Shown: one piece after another, positions 22,928 through 64,000 of the stretch
Position numbering within the stretch: position 1 is the first letter of the stretch
Layout of the letters: every line of letters starts with the position of its first letter
NCBI GenBank assembly: GCA_965216875.1
Contig: OZ244207.1
Span: 3,744,001-3,808,000 of the forward strand
Source of the DNA: Rubripirellula sp.
GTDB lineage: Bacteria; Planctomycetota; Planctomycetia; Pirellulales; Pirellulaceae
Length of the DNA: 64,000 nt
Direction: 5' to 3'
Made by a program: the position numbers and the translations under genes
Notes under the pieces: generated by a model
Databases searched by the model: none
Told to the model about the DNA's origin: nothing
The model's input: only the letters and a program-made list of their open reading frames with translations

Positions 22928-23304
22928 CGTGGCCACGCTCTGCGTGGTCACGCACTTTCTGGACGCTCCGCGTCCTCTTCGTAGGTCATGCTCCGCATGA
23001 CGAGCGTTCGCAATACGTGCCGGGAATGCAAAGCCCGGCCGCTTACGCGTTCGCGGCTCACCGGGCGCAGTTCGTAGTACCGAGCTTTAGCCGGAATCTT
23101 CAAGCTCTTCCGCCCAAAGGCGGGACGACAAACGGTGTCGACCGTGGGCAGTGCAAAGCCCGGCCGCTTACGCGATCACGGCTCACAGGGCGCAGTTCGT
23201 AGTACCGAGCTTTAGCCGGAATCTTCACGCTCTTCCGCCCAAAGGCAGGACGACAAACGGTGTCGACCGTTGGGATCAAGGCCCGACGCTACGCGTTCGG
23301 CTCA
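22928..23304. repeat. Composite REP cluster (families C, D, A; about 125-bp D+A unit repeated) between convergent genes
   Basis: GTAGGTCATGCTCCGCATGAC near 22982; D+A units near 23030-23145 and 23155-23270; final D arm near 23280-23304. Confidence 0.8.
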
Positions 23305-31377: not shown

Positions 31378-31652
31378 ATTGAGCCGCGATCGCGTAAGCG
31401 GCCGGGCCTCTTGATCGCAATTTGCCTCAGTGTTCTCAGACCAAGACCCCGGAACGCAAACATATGCTTCGTGCTTCGTGCTTCGTGCTCGTGCTCAGCA
31501 AAGCGGTGCTCGTAATCGGCTTACCGATTTGCATTCGGTTGAAAAATCGGCGGCTAGCACCTTGCCGCTCAAGGTATCTCGCGCGATCGCGTCAGGAATT
31601 GTCATGCACCGCATGACCTACGGTTCGCATTGTCATGCACAGCATGACCTAC
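31378..31652. repeat. REP family D arm, (TGCTTCG)n heptamer run and family C arms
   Basis: TGAGCCGCGATCGCGTAAGCGGCCGGGCC; TGCTTCG repeated near 31465-31495; two GTCATGCACmGCATGACCTAC copies near 31601 and 31632. Confidence 0.65.
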
Positions 31653-43836: not shown

Positions 43837-43923
43837 GTAGGTCATGCTCCGCATGACAAGCATTGTCTGTGTAGGTCATGCTCCGCATGACATTCGCTGG
43901 GTGTCATGCGGAGCATGACCTAC
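43837..43923. repeat. REP family C cluster (GTAGGTCATGCTCCGCATGAC x3, last inverted)
   Basis: Directly visible; also near 22982, 31601-31652 and 60124. Confidence 0.8.
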
Positions 43924-58887: not shown

Positions 58888-59406
58888 GTGATCGCTTGGA
58901 GAAATCTGTTGCAATCCGAATCGAGTGCTGAGTCGAACGACGATCGCGCAATCATACGCGCCGGGTTTCGCTATGCGCTGTCGTTGACCCATGACCGGCA
59001 CGATGCCGAAGATCTCGTCCAACAGGCATGCCTCAAGACGTTCCGGTCGCGCGGCAAATTGATCAGCAAACGGTACCTGTTCGTCGCGATTCGCAACCTG
59101 TTCGTTGATCGATGTCGAAAAAAGCAACTCCATCGCGCCGATCTCGACACCGTCGACTTGGCCGACCCGAAGCCCTCTCAATCGGAACGGCTCGAACATC
59201 GCGACGACATCCAAACCATGCTCAGCCTGCTTAGTTACGAGCAGCGCGAGGTGTTGTTTCTCAATTGCGTCGAAGGCTACACCGCCGCCGAAATCGCTGA
59301 AATCACAGGACAACCCCGAGGAACGATCCTGAGTCAATTGGCTCGTGTAAAAAAGAAGCTCGTGGATCGCTTTGGCGATGTGGAGGTGACATGCCATGAC
59401 GATTGA
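58888..59406 (+). CDS. ECF-type RNA polymerase sigma factor
   Basis: RYALSLTHDRHDAEDLVQQA, YLFVAIRNLFVD, QREVLFL..VEGYTAAEIA...PRGTILSQLAR. Confidence 0.9.
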   Translation: MIAWRNLLQSESSAESNDDRAIIRAGFRYALSLTHDRHDAEDLVQQACLKTFRSRGKLISKRYLFVAIRNLFVDRCRKKQLHRADLDTVDLADPKPSQSERLEHRDDIQTMLSLLSYEQREVLFLNCVEGYTAAEIAEITGQPRGTILSQLARVKKKLVDRFGDVEVTCHDD

Positions 59407-60007
59407 CGAGCAAGACGTTGTTGACTTCTATAAGAACGCCGAGCTTGATGACGCACACGTTGATGCCATCCTCGCAAGCGGGCAACATGTCGTCTCGGCG
59501 CGGCGATGGAAACGCATCGCGATCGCTTCGATGGTTGCTTTGGCAGCAACGTTAGTCGTTGTTGTCGGCGTTCTATCACGCAATGCCGATGCTCCTCATC
59601 AAAACGATCAACAACAGGCTGCACGGCCCGACGAGGGTGTCAATGCGGTTGTGCGGCCGAGCGCCGAAGTTGAGCAACCCGCAACGACCTACCGGCTTGC
59701 CGCCTTTCGCAGCCACAATGATCAATGCCCGCATTGTCGCGCCACCGGCGAGCTGTACCAAACGCTGTCGGATCGTTTTGCCGACGCGTCGATCGAATTC
59801 GAAAAGTTTGAGCTTCAAGACCGAGCTCGCCTCGATGACACCAAAGCGAAAATCAAAACACGAGGGCTTGGTGAACTGGTGGAAGGAAAACAGGAGACTG
59901 CGTTCGCCGTCTTGCTGTCGCCAACCGGCAAGGTGTTGCAACGGTTCAAGGGAACGGATGACGTGCAAAGCGTCCAAACCAAGATCGCCAACGTGATCGA
60001 GCAATAA
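59396..60007 (+). CDS. Putative anti-sigma factor with TM helix and extracytoplasmic CxxC thioredoxin-like domain
   Basis: Overlaps the sigma stop, SD GGAGGTG; short cytoplasmic N-terminus, TM helix, AFRSHNDQCPHC, LLSPTGKVLQRFKG. Confidence 0.72.
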   Translation: MTIDEQDVVDFYKNAELDDAHVDAILASGQHVVSARRWKRIAIASMVALAATLVVVVGVLSRNADAPHQNDQQQAARPDEGVNAVVRPSAEVEQPATTYRLAAFRSHNDQCPHCRATGELYQTLSDRFADASIEFEKFELQDRARLDDTKAKIKTRGLGELVEGKQETAFAVLLSPTGKVLQRFKGTDDVQSVQTKIANVIEQ

Positions 60008-60018
60008 CCGAGTTCCCC

Positions 60019-60145
60019 CGTAGCTACGCTCGCCAGAGCGTGGGGTTTTGAAAAACGCTCGACCAACGCATTCCATGTTCTTGCGAAGGTAGCGACGGTT
60101 TGGAAAGGTCAGCCCGCCCCAGATGTCATGCACAGCATGACCTAC
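60019..60145. repeat. REP family B (inverted, degenerate) and family C arm
   Basis: CGTAGCTACGCTCGCCAGAGCGTGG...GCGAAGGTAGCGACG; GTCATGCACAGCATGACCTACG. Confidence 0.7.
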
Positions 60146-60203
60146 GGCAGCTACAATGAACTCCAACCATTTCAAAGCATCTTCCGTTTGTGGGAACGCT
60201 CTG

Positions 60204-61526
60204 ATGCCAACACTCACTCGCTCGTTCGTGCACTGCGTGCTGTTCGTCGCCGCGTGCTTGGCGACTTGCGTCCCTTGCTTTTCGTCCGAGCCGTTTCGAT
60301 ATGACGACACGGGCGACAAGCTTCCGCGGCCGCGTTTTCACAACATCCAAACGGGATTGCCAGGAGGCATCGAGCGTGATGCGTTGCTTTGGGGTATCGA
60401 TCCGACCGGCACATCAAAGTGGAACCTCGGCTGGTTTGTTTACGGGGCCCAGGATTCGCGTAGCATCGCCATCGGATTCAAAGCGGGCACACCCAGCCAG
60501 CTTTATGTTGACTTGAATCGCGACAAAACCTTTCAAGCCGATGAACGGATCAACGCCGATGATCCTGGCGTCGAAAGTTGGCAAACCAAGATCGATGCCG
60601 AATTCGTTACCGAGTCGGGTGACTTTGAAACGGCAACCCGTTCGATTCGCATTCGACGTTTGGGGGACGAGGCGATCCAAATCGCAACAACCGGCGTGAT
60701 GCGAGGCCAAGTCGAGATTGGTGGCACCTCGATCGCCGCAATCCGGATGGATCGTGACAGCAACGGTCGCTGGTTCGACGCTGCCGATCGCATCGTGTTG
60801 GACCTCAATGGTGACGGCAAAGTCGATTCGATCGGCGGCCGTGTCGCCTGTGAATCAATCACGCGGCTGTTCGGAAAACGCTATGTGCTCAAGAGTGATC
60901 AAGTAGGAACGAGTATCGAATTCGACGAACTCGTTGGGACCGGATCGATCGCTCCTCACCTTCCGCTGAAACCGTCCGTCGAGCTGAGCAAATTCAACGC
61001 TTCGCTTGTTTCGCGTGGTGGAGTTCGCGTTGCACTCGAAGGGCTCGAGCCACGAGACGAATGCCCTGTTGGCCATTATCGAATTGAGTCGCTTTCGTTT
61101 GAGGTCACCGAAGCGGATGAGCAATACGAGTTCTTTTTCTACGGGTCGAACCAGTCGAAGTACCCGTTTGAAGTTTCCGATGCCGGTTCGACCAAAGTCG
61201 ACCTGCTGGGCGAATTGAAACTCGGCGGCGGCCAAACGGTGATCCCGCGTCCGGACGGGGCGATGATCACGATCAACCCATCGCTGACCACCACCAGCGG
61301 TCTCTACATGACCGACTGCAAAGCCGAACAACGAGAAAACCGATTGCTCGTTCGAGCGAGACATGGCGACCACGTTTTCGCGACCGCGTCTTCGGGATTC
61401 TCGTGAGGCAGTCTCTGTCCGGTCTCGGTCCGAGTCCCCCAATCTATTGAACCCCTTCACGTCACGTCGTTGCTTCTCTTTGACGGCGGTCCTCTCGCTG
61501 GCCTCTTGCAAAAGGTTGTTCCCTAG
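60204..61526 (+). CDS. Exported protein with in-frame TGA (61404-61406) followed by a 39-aa Cys-containing extension; candidate selenoprotein / UGA-readthrough product (ends at 61406 if TGA is a true stop; alternative ATG 60156)
   Basis: Signal peptide; DxNxD Ca-binding-like loops (DLNRDK, DRDSNG, DLNGDG); ...SSGFS-TGA-GSLCPVSVRVPQ...FDGGPLAGLLQKVVP-TAG, ending 5 nt before the next ATG. Confidence 0.65.
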
Positions 61527-61531
61527 CCTCA

Positions 61532-64000
61532 ATGCGTACTCTCACTCTTGCCGCACTGTCGCTTGTCGCATCTGTTTCGATCGCAAGTGGCGCCTCGCCC
61601 GTGATTCGTGGAGTCGTTACGTCAAAGGATGACTCGTCGAAGATTGCTGATGCCAAAGTGACACTGGTGGCCGGTGCGGGTTGGCTCAAACAGGCCTACG
61701 CCGAACTGAACCCAGAGCAACCGCAAGTCACCTCAGCCTCCGATGCCGACGGAAACTTTTCGTTGCCATTCCCGCAAACCGATCGACGCTTCTTTCTTCC
61801 CGACAAGCATCACCTTGTCGTCACCGCCCCCGGGTTTCAGCCGCATGTCGTCGACTTGCATTACCAGCGCATCAAAGTCAACGTGCCCCTTGAAATCAAG
61901 CTGCGTCGCGGGGAAGGCTCGACGGTCGCAATCGTTTCACCCGAAAACAAGACGCTCGCTGGCGTACGAGTCGCACCTGCAATTGTTGCCGGCCACCGGA
62001 TTCCTTGGTGCGTCGCTCGATCGCTTGCCAACGTGTCTGACGAAAACGGAAAGGTGACGGTTCAAGGATGCGATGCTGAGACATTGGAAGCGGTGTTCCT
62101 TAGCGGCGATGGTGTCGGAAACCAACGGTCTGGGGTTCGCAAGCAAGCAGGCAAAGGAATCGTCGTGGTCCCGGCCCGGACGCGAGAAGTCGTCGGAAAG
62201 GTGATTCCAGCGGACGGAGAAACGATCGACAACTTGGACGCGACACGGCTATTCGTGATTTCGAGACCGGTGGGGGCGAGTGCCCGTGTGACCAATCCCG
62301 ACAACCTTGGTTGGTCCTTCGCTCACCTCGACGCCGCCGGTAACTTTCGATCGCCCGCCCTCAGCCAAGGACAACTGCAACATCTCCTTGCTTGCCCAAG
62401 TGATTTCCCTTTCCGATTTGATGCCGACAAACAGGTCGAACTGTCGGGCGGAGAAGGGGCGTTCGCTTGGGAAATGGAAATGAGCAAACAGGTTCAGCTG
62501 ATCGCAACGATACGCGAAGCCGGAACCGACACACCTCTCGAAGACATCTCGATCGCAAGTTTTGACGGCCGGCTCGAAGACACCTTCACCGACGCAAGCG
62601 GCAAGGCGAGGTTCTTTCGAGTACGAGACCACGTTTCTTACTACCCGCATGACCATACTGGCGTCCTCTATTTTGACGACACCTTTTATCAGAGTTCAAA
62701 AAAGCTGCCTGTCGATGGCGTGCTTGAACTGGAACCACTCACGCTCAACCGCAGCACCGGGTGGCGTGGCAGTGTGGTGGATGCCGACGGAAAACCGGTT
62801 GCCGGCGCGTCGATTGCTTACGAGTTTGGGCAAGAGCGTTTCCTGACCACGCAACACGTCTTTTCAAATCCAGAAGGCGAATTCAGTCTCTTCGGCGTTG
62901 CTGACCAGACGTCCGTAACGCTGCTGGCCAGCAAAGGGAATTCGCTTTCCGAGAAGCGAAGCGTCATCCTGAACTCCGACGAACCGGTCGAACTGGTGAT
63001 CACGCCTCGCAAAACAGCCGTACCAACGGGAAGGGTTGTTGATCTCGATGGTCATCCTGTTGTGGGGATAAGCGTCAACATACGCCGTGGACAAGTCATG
63101 ATCGCCGAGGGCTACAGCTCGGAAGAGCTGATGGAATCGGAATTCTATGATCGTCCGACGACGGCAACGACCAATGACGACGGACTCTTTGAATTCCCAA
63201 AGACCGTTGACTTCAAAGAACGCGTGCAGATTCGAATCAGTGCTCCCGACTTCTTTAAGCTGCACAGTCCCTATGCTGCGGGAAAGCTGATTGGCGACGA
63301 AGCGGAGGTGTCGTCGGTCGGACGCCTGGAATTGGGCGAGTTTCGCATCATGCGCCGCGGTGCTGAAAGCGAAATCCAAGTCGTCGTGAAATCGGAGGCC
63401 GGTGAGGGCATTGCGAATGCGCGGGTCGCCATCGTCGGTGCGCGCGTCGGCACGGTTCGCGGCACAACAGGCGCCAACGGAACAGCATCGTTTCGTGTAC
63501 CGAAAGGGAAAGCAATCGTCGGAATCTCGGCGCCGGGTTACGCACCGTACTTTGCGCCGCTGGCGAACGACGGCGCCGTCGACTGTCGATTGTCAAAGCA
63601 GACATCGCCCATCACAAACTCGATCCGCAACGTAGAACCGGAAACCTTCTTTGATGCTGCGAACCAGGTCTTTGGTGTCGTTGAACCGGTCGTAGTAAAG
63701 AGCAGTCCCATGCATCGGGTTGGGCTGTACATGCAGGGGCTCGCCGCAACCCAACCGGAGCAATTCTTGGCCTACGTCCAGACGGCTGTGGTGCAGAACC
63801 CGCAAGTCGGGCAGTACGCGTTGATGTATGGCGAGCATGCACTTCGGCAGCAACCCGAGATGGTCGAATTGGTGGTCAACAACCCACTGGTCCCAGCGGA
63901 GTACGCTGCGATGTTGCTTACCCAAGCCGCCTCGATGTCGGACGATCCCGACTTGCATGAGGACTTCTTGGGTGAAGCACTTGCGATGGCACGGAAAAAG
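61532..64000 (+). CDS. Large exported protein with repeated carboxypeptidase-regulatory-like (transthyretin-like) domains; truncated by the window end and absent from the ORF track
   Basis: ATG 61532 MRTLTLAALSLVASVSIASGA signal; repeated G.VVD.DGKPVAGA...T+..G.F motifs; no stop found in this frame to 64000. Confidence 0.85.
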   Translation, partial: MRTLTLAALSLVASVSIASGASPVIRGVVTSKDDSSKIADAKVTLVAGAGWLKQAYAELNPEQPQVTSASDADGNFSLPFPQTDRRFFLPDKHHLVVTAPGFQPHVVDLHYQRIKVNVPLEIKLRRGEGSTVAIVSPENKTLAGVRVAPAIVAGHRIPWCVARSLANVSDENGKVTVQGCDAETLEAVFLSGDGVGNQRSGVRKQAGKGIVVVPARTREVVGKVIPADGETIDNLDATRLFVISRPVGASARVTNPDNLGWSFAHLDAAGNFRSPALSQGQLQHLLACPSDFPFRFDADKQVELSGGEGAFAWEMEMSKQVQLIATIREAGTDTPLEDISIASFDGRLEDTFTDASGKARFFRVRDHVSYYPHDHTGVLYFDDTFYQSSKKLPVDGVLELEPLTLNRSTGWRGSVVDADGKPVAGASIAYEFGQERFLTTQHVFSNPEGEFSLFGVADQTSVTLLASKGNSLSEKRSVILNSDEPVELVITPRKTAVPTGRVVDLDGHPVVGISVNIRRGQVMIAEGYSSEELMESEFYDRPTTATTNDDGLFEFPKTVDFKERVQIRISAPDFFKLHSPYAAGKLIGDEAEVSSVGRLELGEFRIMRRGAESEIQVVVKSEAGEGIANARVAIVGARVGTVRGTTGANGTASFRVPKGKAIVGISAPGYAPYFAPLANDGAVDCRLSKQTSPITNSIRNVEPETFFDAANQVFGVVEPVVVKSSPMHRVGLYMQGLAATQPEQFLAYVQTAVVQNPQVGQYALMYGEHALRQQPEMVELVVNNPLVPAEYAAMLLTQAASMSDDPDLHEDFLGEALAMARKK

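Follow-up and report, generated by a model that had tools for sequence, protein, structure and literature searches.

The closest described counterpart of the recoding event reported here is SelB-dependent selenocysteine (Sec) insertion, for which the accessible portion of PMC13188914 gives a consensus model. The event concerns an in-frame TGA codon (UGA in the mRNA) at positions 61404..61406 on the plus strand of the window, that is, the whole stretch of 64,000 nucleotides (nt) that was analysed (Rubripirellula sp. assembly GCA_965216875.1, contig OZ244207.1, positions 3,744,001 to 3,808,000). The genome holding the window is called G000; other genomes, loci, and database proteins carry G, L, and P numbers, respectively. 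The locus shares with the consensus model the in-frame UGA, a small G-initiated loop 20-21 nt downstream, the 4-bp upper stem, the presence of sel genes, and the existence of Cys homologs. It differs in the stability of the hairpin, which in isolation reaches -6.2 kcal/mol in the window gene, short of the -7.5 threshold unless the adjacent stem is counted under constraint (-10.3). The recoding mechanism itself is ordinary. Judged from the comparative sequence evidence given below, UGA 61404-61406 is almost certainly a Sec codon. The protein family concerned is apparently uncatalogued, with a new combination of motif and fold: UxxxC (U being Sec) on an exported domain resembling immunoglobulin (Ig) and macroglobulin (MG) domains.

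Among known protein families, DUF1573 (PF07610) has an Ig-like fold. Its selenoprotein form resembles the present family in that a beta-sandwich loop bears Sec-Gly with a Cys close by, and two distant members of the family have UGC. On the other hand, the spacing here is UxxxC, and both the architecture and the partner gene are different. The DUF1573 selenoprotein, with the motif UGC, is listed in Table 1 of PMC13188914, as far as that paper was accessible. PF07610 gave ten matches in G000 at E-values up to 0.1, none of them at the locus. A weak DUF1573 match on the minus strand (G000:C1:4024581-4024778) has one in-frame TGA and is possibly a further selenoprotein. The thioredoxin-fold selenoproteins with UxxC (Trx, Prx-like, and TlpA/redoxin) are similar in having a U...C pair which likely cycles as a selenenylsulfide, and the N-terminal domain of the present protein also occurs fused to AhpC/TSA. 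In contrast, the protein described here is predicted to be all-beta, with three instead of two residues between U and C. No thioredoxin-family match in Pfam or NCBIfam was found for the protein or for 19 members of the family. An earlier note on this DNA had called the protein a non-thioredoxin one, with which the all-beta model, its Ig-like matches, and this null result agree.

The N-terminal (alpha) domain of DsbD, which adopts an Ig fold, is periplasmic and carries its redox-active Cys pair on a hairpin; it is the best working analogy. However, it has no sequence match to the family and a different spacing, and its Cys pair is located on a different hairpin from the family's Sec loop. Neither DsbD-alpha nor DUF1573 structures were among the best 50 rows of the VIA-align comparison, a listing in which lower-ranking relatives would not appear. 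The MG domains of alpha-2-macroglobulin, TEP1, and the complement proteins C3, C4, and C5 have the same beta-sandwich (Z 8.0-8.7); 4zjh superposes on the C-terminal domain with a root-mean-square deviation of 2.1 A over 73 residues, and Pfam MG2 matches one of the 19 members (E 3e-5). These scores are tied with those of GH2 and major histocompatibility complex (MHC) Ig domains, though, and the present protein has no thioester or bait domain; a modelled fold shared with MG domains would not indicate a function.

No model of Pfam or NCBIfam (June 2026) matches the window protein, and the 19 diverse members gave only M56-type fusion domains and weak GEVED, MG2, and YmiA matches. For NF041046 (UGSC family), one weak match (E 0.32) was found elsewhere in G000, and for NF049953 (hypothetical protein DG, GUxG) four weak ones, with none at the locus in either case. 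Table 1 of PMC13188914, in its accessible form, has 119 selenoprotein families, some in rows without a motif, and no UxxxC among the motifs given; the present family would add to this list both the motif and an exported Ig/MG-like fold class. Planctomycetes are unmentioned in the available passages of PMC12013277, PMC13326102, and 10.1101/2022.07.06.499078. The available part of Table S9 of PMC4807772 contains planctomycete candidates of other kinds and one unidentifiable 'hypothetical' that might belong to the family. I found no description of the family in the literature compared, outside of which lie the BSepDB family table and the supplements of Haft and Tolstoy 2025; either may bear on this point.

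The Reading Frame beyond the UGA

The putative selenoprotein gene probably extends from 60204 to 61526 on the plus strand and would encode 440 amino acids (aa), or 456 aa from an alternative ATG at 60156. The ATG at 60204 is the likelier start, following the database gene call, which covers 400 aa from 60204 and ends at the TGA. Residue numbers (U417 and C421) are counted from ATG 60156. In this frame, the TGA follows ...ASSGFS, and 39 sense codons (GSLCPVSVRVP...LLQKVVP) then lead to a TAG codon at 61524-61526. C421 is encoded by the fourth codon past the TGA (TGT, 61416..61418). The extension including the TAG (61407..61526) contains three predicted beta-strands and an F-D-x-G-P-L-x-G motif at 61479-61502. 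A hairpin at 61421..61437, 15-31 nt past the UGA, is the candidate coding-region Sec insertion sequence (SECIS); its conserved core lies at 61424-61434 and its loop at 61427-61431. The frame, the 39-codon extension, the Cys codon, and the hairpin are all as the earlier note had described them. That note had further proposed that read-through produces tight operon spacing. The next ATG (61532) comes 5 nt after the read-through stop, versus 125 nt if the TGA is the stop. This spacing argument extends to other loci: of the 20 in which the homolog of this next gene lies downstream, 13 have its ATG no more than 25 nt from the read-through stop, and in 8 the two overlap.

The contig of sequencing run X1 covers the TGA without a differing letter, and X1 may itself be the run from which the assembly was made. 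In run X5, the contig is broken across 61402-61448 and is thus uninformative on the TGA. No paralog was found elsewhere in G000, and scans for promoters and terminators gave signals at chance level only.

Conservation of the TGA Codon

Is the TGA codon conserved among homologs? In a family-level sample of 200 genomes, a protein search found matches in 15; of the 20 non-self matches, 19 were long, and the short one (L038) was excluded. Eighteen of the 19 long loci have one TGA in the same column, in the context G-[FY]-x-TGA-G-...-C...[RG]VP...GP, while the 19th (G120) has TGT. No TAA or TAG was found in the Sec column of these 19 loci. L208 has TGT in the column. C421 is present in 20 of 20 alignment rows, compared with 8 of 20 for the next-best Cys, and is the sole invariant Cys besides the Sec column. 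Two Cys forms were examined as DNA, G120 (= P0029) and G931; the hairpin is gone in both, and G120 has lost the RVP motif as well.

Among the 159 database proteins examined, 140 terminate at G[FY]x. They have been cut at the Sec codon, losing the proposed U/C pair and the three strands of the last domain, and the family is thereby invisible as a selenoprotein family. Twelve proteins cross the column, all 12 with Cys and 10 of them without RVP; three have variant residues and stop at the column, and four are fragments. In agreement with what the earlier note had expected of a recoded UGA, the TGA is either conserved or replaced by Cys.

A DNA-pattern scan of species genomes detected at least 119 loci, of which 113 are family members, six chance matches having been removed; since the pattern fixed the TGA, the Cys, and [RG]VP, this set cannot test those columns. 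Of 115 distinct genes, 108 have an FDxGPLxG-like motif 25 codons beyond, which was no part of the search pattern. The 78 titled real loci come from Planctomycetota (74), Abditibacteriaceae (2), Armatimonadota (1), and Anaerolineales (1). With the family profile, 379 clusters were found at E <1e-30 among 50%-identity representatives, and the nearest named relatives are homologs labelled Pirellulaceae. Eight loci (L081, L115, L122, L133, L145, L149, L150, and L156) have a short frame of 61-240 codons before the Sec codon, probably due to frameshifts or assembly errors. Four Sec/Cys changes are required on a quick tree of 82 rows (69 Sec and 13 Cys), and well-supported branches force every one of them; as the tree is unrooted, the direction of change depends on the root.

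Purifying selection was estimated from 25 disjoint pairs. The ratio of nonsynonymous to synonymous substitution rates (dN/dS) is 0.247 in post-UGA codons 13-39 and 0.261 in the 60 codons before the UGA, and thus the ratio below one that the earlier note had predicted for the post-TGA segment was observed. In contrast, the synonymous rate dS is 0.23 in post-UGA codons 1-12, where the hairpin lies, compared with 0.65 upstream and 0.84 in codons 13-39. The hairpin suppresses synonymous change.

The Candidate SECIS Hairpin

The conserved hairpin matches the consensus geometry of bacterial SECIS elements in section 5 of PMC13188914, in the portion accessible. In the 20 homology-found sequences, 84% of the stem cells are paired, with eight double changes (0 of 500 shuffles), for example from UA to CG or AU at the central pair. 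Slid controls pair at 24-56%. RNAalifold independently recovered the identical three-pair core, the pairs of which are kept in 108, 108, and 109 of 109 distinct post-UGA sequences. Thus, the hairpin conservation that the earlier note had proposed to look for is borne out by a retained and covarying core. Its comparison of the loop with the GGUC loop of fdhF is partly sustained. Every listed loop has a G within its first three positions, but the loop is not a fixed fdhF-type GGUC, as GGUNC, CGUGC, and GUGUC are all common.

SECIS tests applied to one sequence alone have no discriminating power. A loose test for bacterial SECIS-like structures was passed by 65 of 150 TGA, 49 of 150 TAA, and 52 of 150 TAG stops of long open reading frames (ORFs) in G000. 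Taken alone, the hairpin, the Cys, and the spacing are not beyond chance; they are raised above chance by the comparative evidence. An argument from a 'rare CGA codon' was rejected, because CGA accounts for 23% of the Arg codons in G000.

Co-occurrence with the Sec Machinery

In G000, selA, selB, and selD score above curated cut-offs, and there is a tRNA-Sec (71.5 bits) whose TCA anticodon occurs in no other tRNA found in the genome. In an order-level sample of 400 genomes with at least 90% completeness, 15 carry the domain (14 with TGA and one with TGT). The selA gene was found in all 14 non-self TGA carriers (E 1e-148 or better), compared with 133 of 401 genomes above the cut-off overall; because kin are not independent, no P value is given for the co-occurrence. 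Of the 37 TGA-carrying genomes tested, 36 have selB, and the one without it is 73% complete. As for the TGT forms, G931 has neither selA nor selB, and G120 retains a selA-like gene without selB. The tRNA-Sec matches of these two genomes score 47-50 bits, like a tRNA-Ser cross-hit in G000. The selA-like gene of G120 (G120:C36:35637-36995) is above the cut-off (340 bits), with no selB match above the cut-off in that genome; mid-scoring selA-like genes of this kind are common in the order. In four genomes (G391, G206, G246, and G737), family genes map to within a few kb of selB or selA, with selB as the neighbour in the first three. At one locus, L216 (G737:C105:82000-101999), a stretch of 20 kb holds selA, selB, an AIRS/CMD (selD-like) gene, one GFx-U member, and three YG-U paralogs in tandem.

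Predicted Protein and Operon Partner

The protein is predicted to be exported. Its signal-peptide-like hydrophobic N-terminus extends approximately over 60204..60284, as delimited by hydropathy only (11-residue value 2.59). Such an N-terminus is present in 111 of 119 family proteins versus 5 of 119 random internal windows, in line with the exported location claimed in the earlier note. The N-terminal beta domain has an acidic motif (60750..60818) in which D199, G204, D211, and D216 are invariant and D208 and G221 nearly so; I take it to resemble a Ca2+-binding motif. The domain recurs in large proteins: of 16 scanned, 4 have AhpC/TSA domains and 10 have HEAT repeats, and it is also shared with VWA proteins.

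An AlphaFold2 model, with U modelled as C, is all-beta with a predicted local distance difference test (pLDDT) score of 87.7. Residues 352-456 (61209..61523) form an Ig/macroglobulin-like beta-sandwich carrying the Sec loop, with generic structural matches (MHC, GH2, and macroglobulin domains) at Z up to 9.6. In the model, U417 and C421 sit in the loop between strands 406-413 and 423-428. Strands 423-428, 436-443, and 450-455 are all predicted to come after the UGA, and thus termination there would leave the last domain incomplete. Foldseek gave no match at E 0.001 or better, and a PDB sequence search with the family profile gave a single weak one (E 0.024). The ESM Atlas returned unnamed planctomycete clusters only, plus one unreliable named match at 0.81.

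The next gene (61532..64000) encodes a conserved operon partner of 1155 aa and extends beyond the window to G000:C1:3808999. The partner has a signal-peptide-like start, CarboxypepD_reg beta-sandwich repeats, and a helical-repeat C-terminus, and the selenoprotein genes usually have a CarboxypepD_reg-repeat gene for 900-1200 aa beside them. Of 78 loci, 62 have a partner homolog on the same strand, in 43 upstream, in 17 downstream, and in 2 on both sides; many of the other 16 loci have short flanks. Both Cys-form genomes, G120 and G931, retain the partner. A complex prediction for a natural Cys form with only the helical C-terminal half of its partner gave a score of 0.01, which speaks neither for nor against an interaction.

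Distant Relatives and Variant Motifs

Distant relatives of the family end with YG-U-GGxCxYSWRVP. A metagenome scan detected at least 135 distinct genes, and 34 of the 35 that were long enough match the family profile at E <1e-5. A third group is related to the family (hhalign probability 98.6%, E 1.3e-15), although the +4 Cys is absent from it. In 30 of the matches listed for this group, the motif is CU in 24, UGC in two, UU in two, a lone Sec in one, and a single Cys without TGA in one; thus CU, UGC, or UU is present in 28 of the 29 TGA genes examined. L237 and L247 have tandem TGA-TGA codons (a putative UU dipeptide) in the same loop, with a conserved frame after them. As far as the sequences indicate, Sec is nearly always accompanied by a second Cys or Sec close by. 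In five proteins (P0083, P0089, P0102, P0118, and P0119), which belong to one Cys clade, Cys forms are fused behind BlaR1/M56 peptidase domains.

I suggest, tentatively and with some doubt, that the gene founds a large, uncatalogued superfamily of exported selenoproteins, which rest on an Ig/MG-like domain of non-thioredoxin type and form, together with a beta-repeat partner of 1000 residues, a dedicated selenium redox relay in the periplasm. Such a superfamily would comprise hundreds of clusters in Planctomycetota and some other phyla, with UxxxC, CU, UGC, or a tandem UU diselenide on the loop of the domain, and some of its forms would be wired to M56 transducers or clustered with sel genes. 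The natural CU, UGC, UU, and CxxxC variants on one scaffold provide a series for comparing Sec with Cys outside the cytoplasm. The family also lends support to the idea that the envelope of aerobic planctomycetes houses a sizeable selenoproteome.

Possible Function of the U/C Pair

It is proposed, with strong support from the genome comparisons, that UGA 61404-61406 is decoded as Sec by SelB-tRNA(Sec), which would bind the hairpin located 15-31 nt further on. The product would be a 440-aa exported all-beta protein whose last Ig/MG-like domain is complete only with read-through and which displays G-F-x-U-G-x-x-C on a loop between two predicted strands. U417 and C421 probably form a reversible selenenylsulfide in the periplasm, for thiol-disulfide exchange or as a redox switch, and gene linkage suggests that the protein probably acts together with the co-encoded 1155-aa partner, which would be a scaffold or a client. 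If Sec is inserted, a redox role of the pair is fairly probable by analogy with UxxC and CU centres and with DsbD-alpha. The proposal as a whole, Sec together with a periplasmic reversible Se-S redox site, is somewhat favoured over the alternatives taken together.

Several observations weigh against it. In the window gene, the 47-nt stretch is no more stably folded than its shuffles (z -0.20; 74 of the 200 were as good), its minimum-energy structure has a different register, the pairing probability of the conserved core is about 0.4, and the isolated hairpin is weak as described above. Sliding the alignment by -1 gives an equal covariation score (0.187 vs 0.180). Kinship among the genomes and the columns fixed by the DNA pattern count here too. 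The fold match is generic, its Z of 9.5 being close to those of many unrelated Ig folds. In a single-domain model, U is at the tip of the hairpin and C421 further down the strand, which is no proof of a Se-S bond. L224 has Sec without a nearby Cys, and L246 has a single Cys. Finally, a conserved Cys is absent from the partner, and thus it is not an obvious disulfide client.

The main alternative accepts a real selenoprotein but takes the U/C pair as a soft-metal site, for Cu(I), Hg, Zn, or a selenium carrier, on an exported scaffold. CxxxC is a characteristic spacing of Cu(I) sites, as in the copper chaperones Sco/SenC, a two-chalcogen loop of varying spacing also fits linear metal coordination, and the proximity of family genes to selB or selA in the four genomes named above could be read in this way. 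However, the alignment has no invariant His or Met as a third ligand, no metal transporter recurs among the neighbours scanned (37 and 16 proteins), and pairs of the UU and vicinal CU kind are characteristic of redox centres; a metal site seems unlikely, if less so than the other alternatives. Could the protein instead be a periplasmic sensor module, relaying the oxidation state of the U/C pair across the membrane? The five M56 fusions and the genes directly upstream in the window, for an extracytoplasmic function (ECF) sigma factor and an anti-sigma-like CxxC protein, would fit this idea. Yet the fusions are confined to one Cys clade, the majority of members are free-standing proteins of roughly 400-480 aa, and a palindromic repeat and a gap of 150-200 nt separate the ECF pair from the selenoprotein gene. 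The pair was not seen recurring upstream of other loci, for which no systematic search was made. I consider a sensor role quite unlikely.

If Sec is real, the Se-S bond might also be a purely structural staple of the last Ig domain, with Sec tolerated in place of Cys. The generic Ig-like fold, the exported location where disulfides are common, and the origin of Cys forms at four or more places on the tree are compatible with such a bond. Against it, Sec predominates across the phylum and is retained despite a costly SECIS constraint, and the partner Cys shifts between -1, +2, and +4, unlike a fold-stabilising bridge; this explanation is improbable. Still less credible is the absence of Sec altogether, that is, a UGA read as Cys, leaky read-through, or a true stop followed by a decayed tail. 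The weakness of the window hairpin alone and the fact that gene callers stop at the TGA speak for it. Nevertheless, tRNA-Sec is the only tRNA found to read this codon by its anticodon, 1743 long ORFs in G000 end in TGA, and the TGA form tracks selA and selB. The earlier note had named mixed stop codons and an unconserved extension as the pattern of a genuine stop; instead, no TAA or TAG occurs in the column of the 19 loci, and purifying selection persists beyond the UGA. Sec insertion with a redox-active U/C pair thus remains my preferred explanation.

Other Features of the Window and Genome

The earlier note implied a first recoded UGA elsewhere in the window, which was sought but not found; the candidates got no homology test. 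The ECF sigma factor gene and, after it, the gene for the anti-sigma-like membrane protein with a C-terminal CxxC lie at 58888-60007 on the plus strand. A 21-nt palindromic repeat resembling repetitive extragenic palindromic elements has seven copies in the window (0 expected from shuffles), at 22981-23001, 31601-31652, 43837-43923, and 60125-60145, the last being just 5' of the selenoprotein gene. Elsewhere in G000:C1, in-frame TGAs were seen at 5006761 (+) and 4039386 (-), in the contexts MV-U-GGC and GGGG-U-GGGSC. ARAGORN called a 'tRNA-Pyl' at 3282034-3282109 of G000. About 48 tRNAs, including tRNA-Ile(TAT), are arranged in three clusters at G000:C1:591000-632638.
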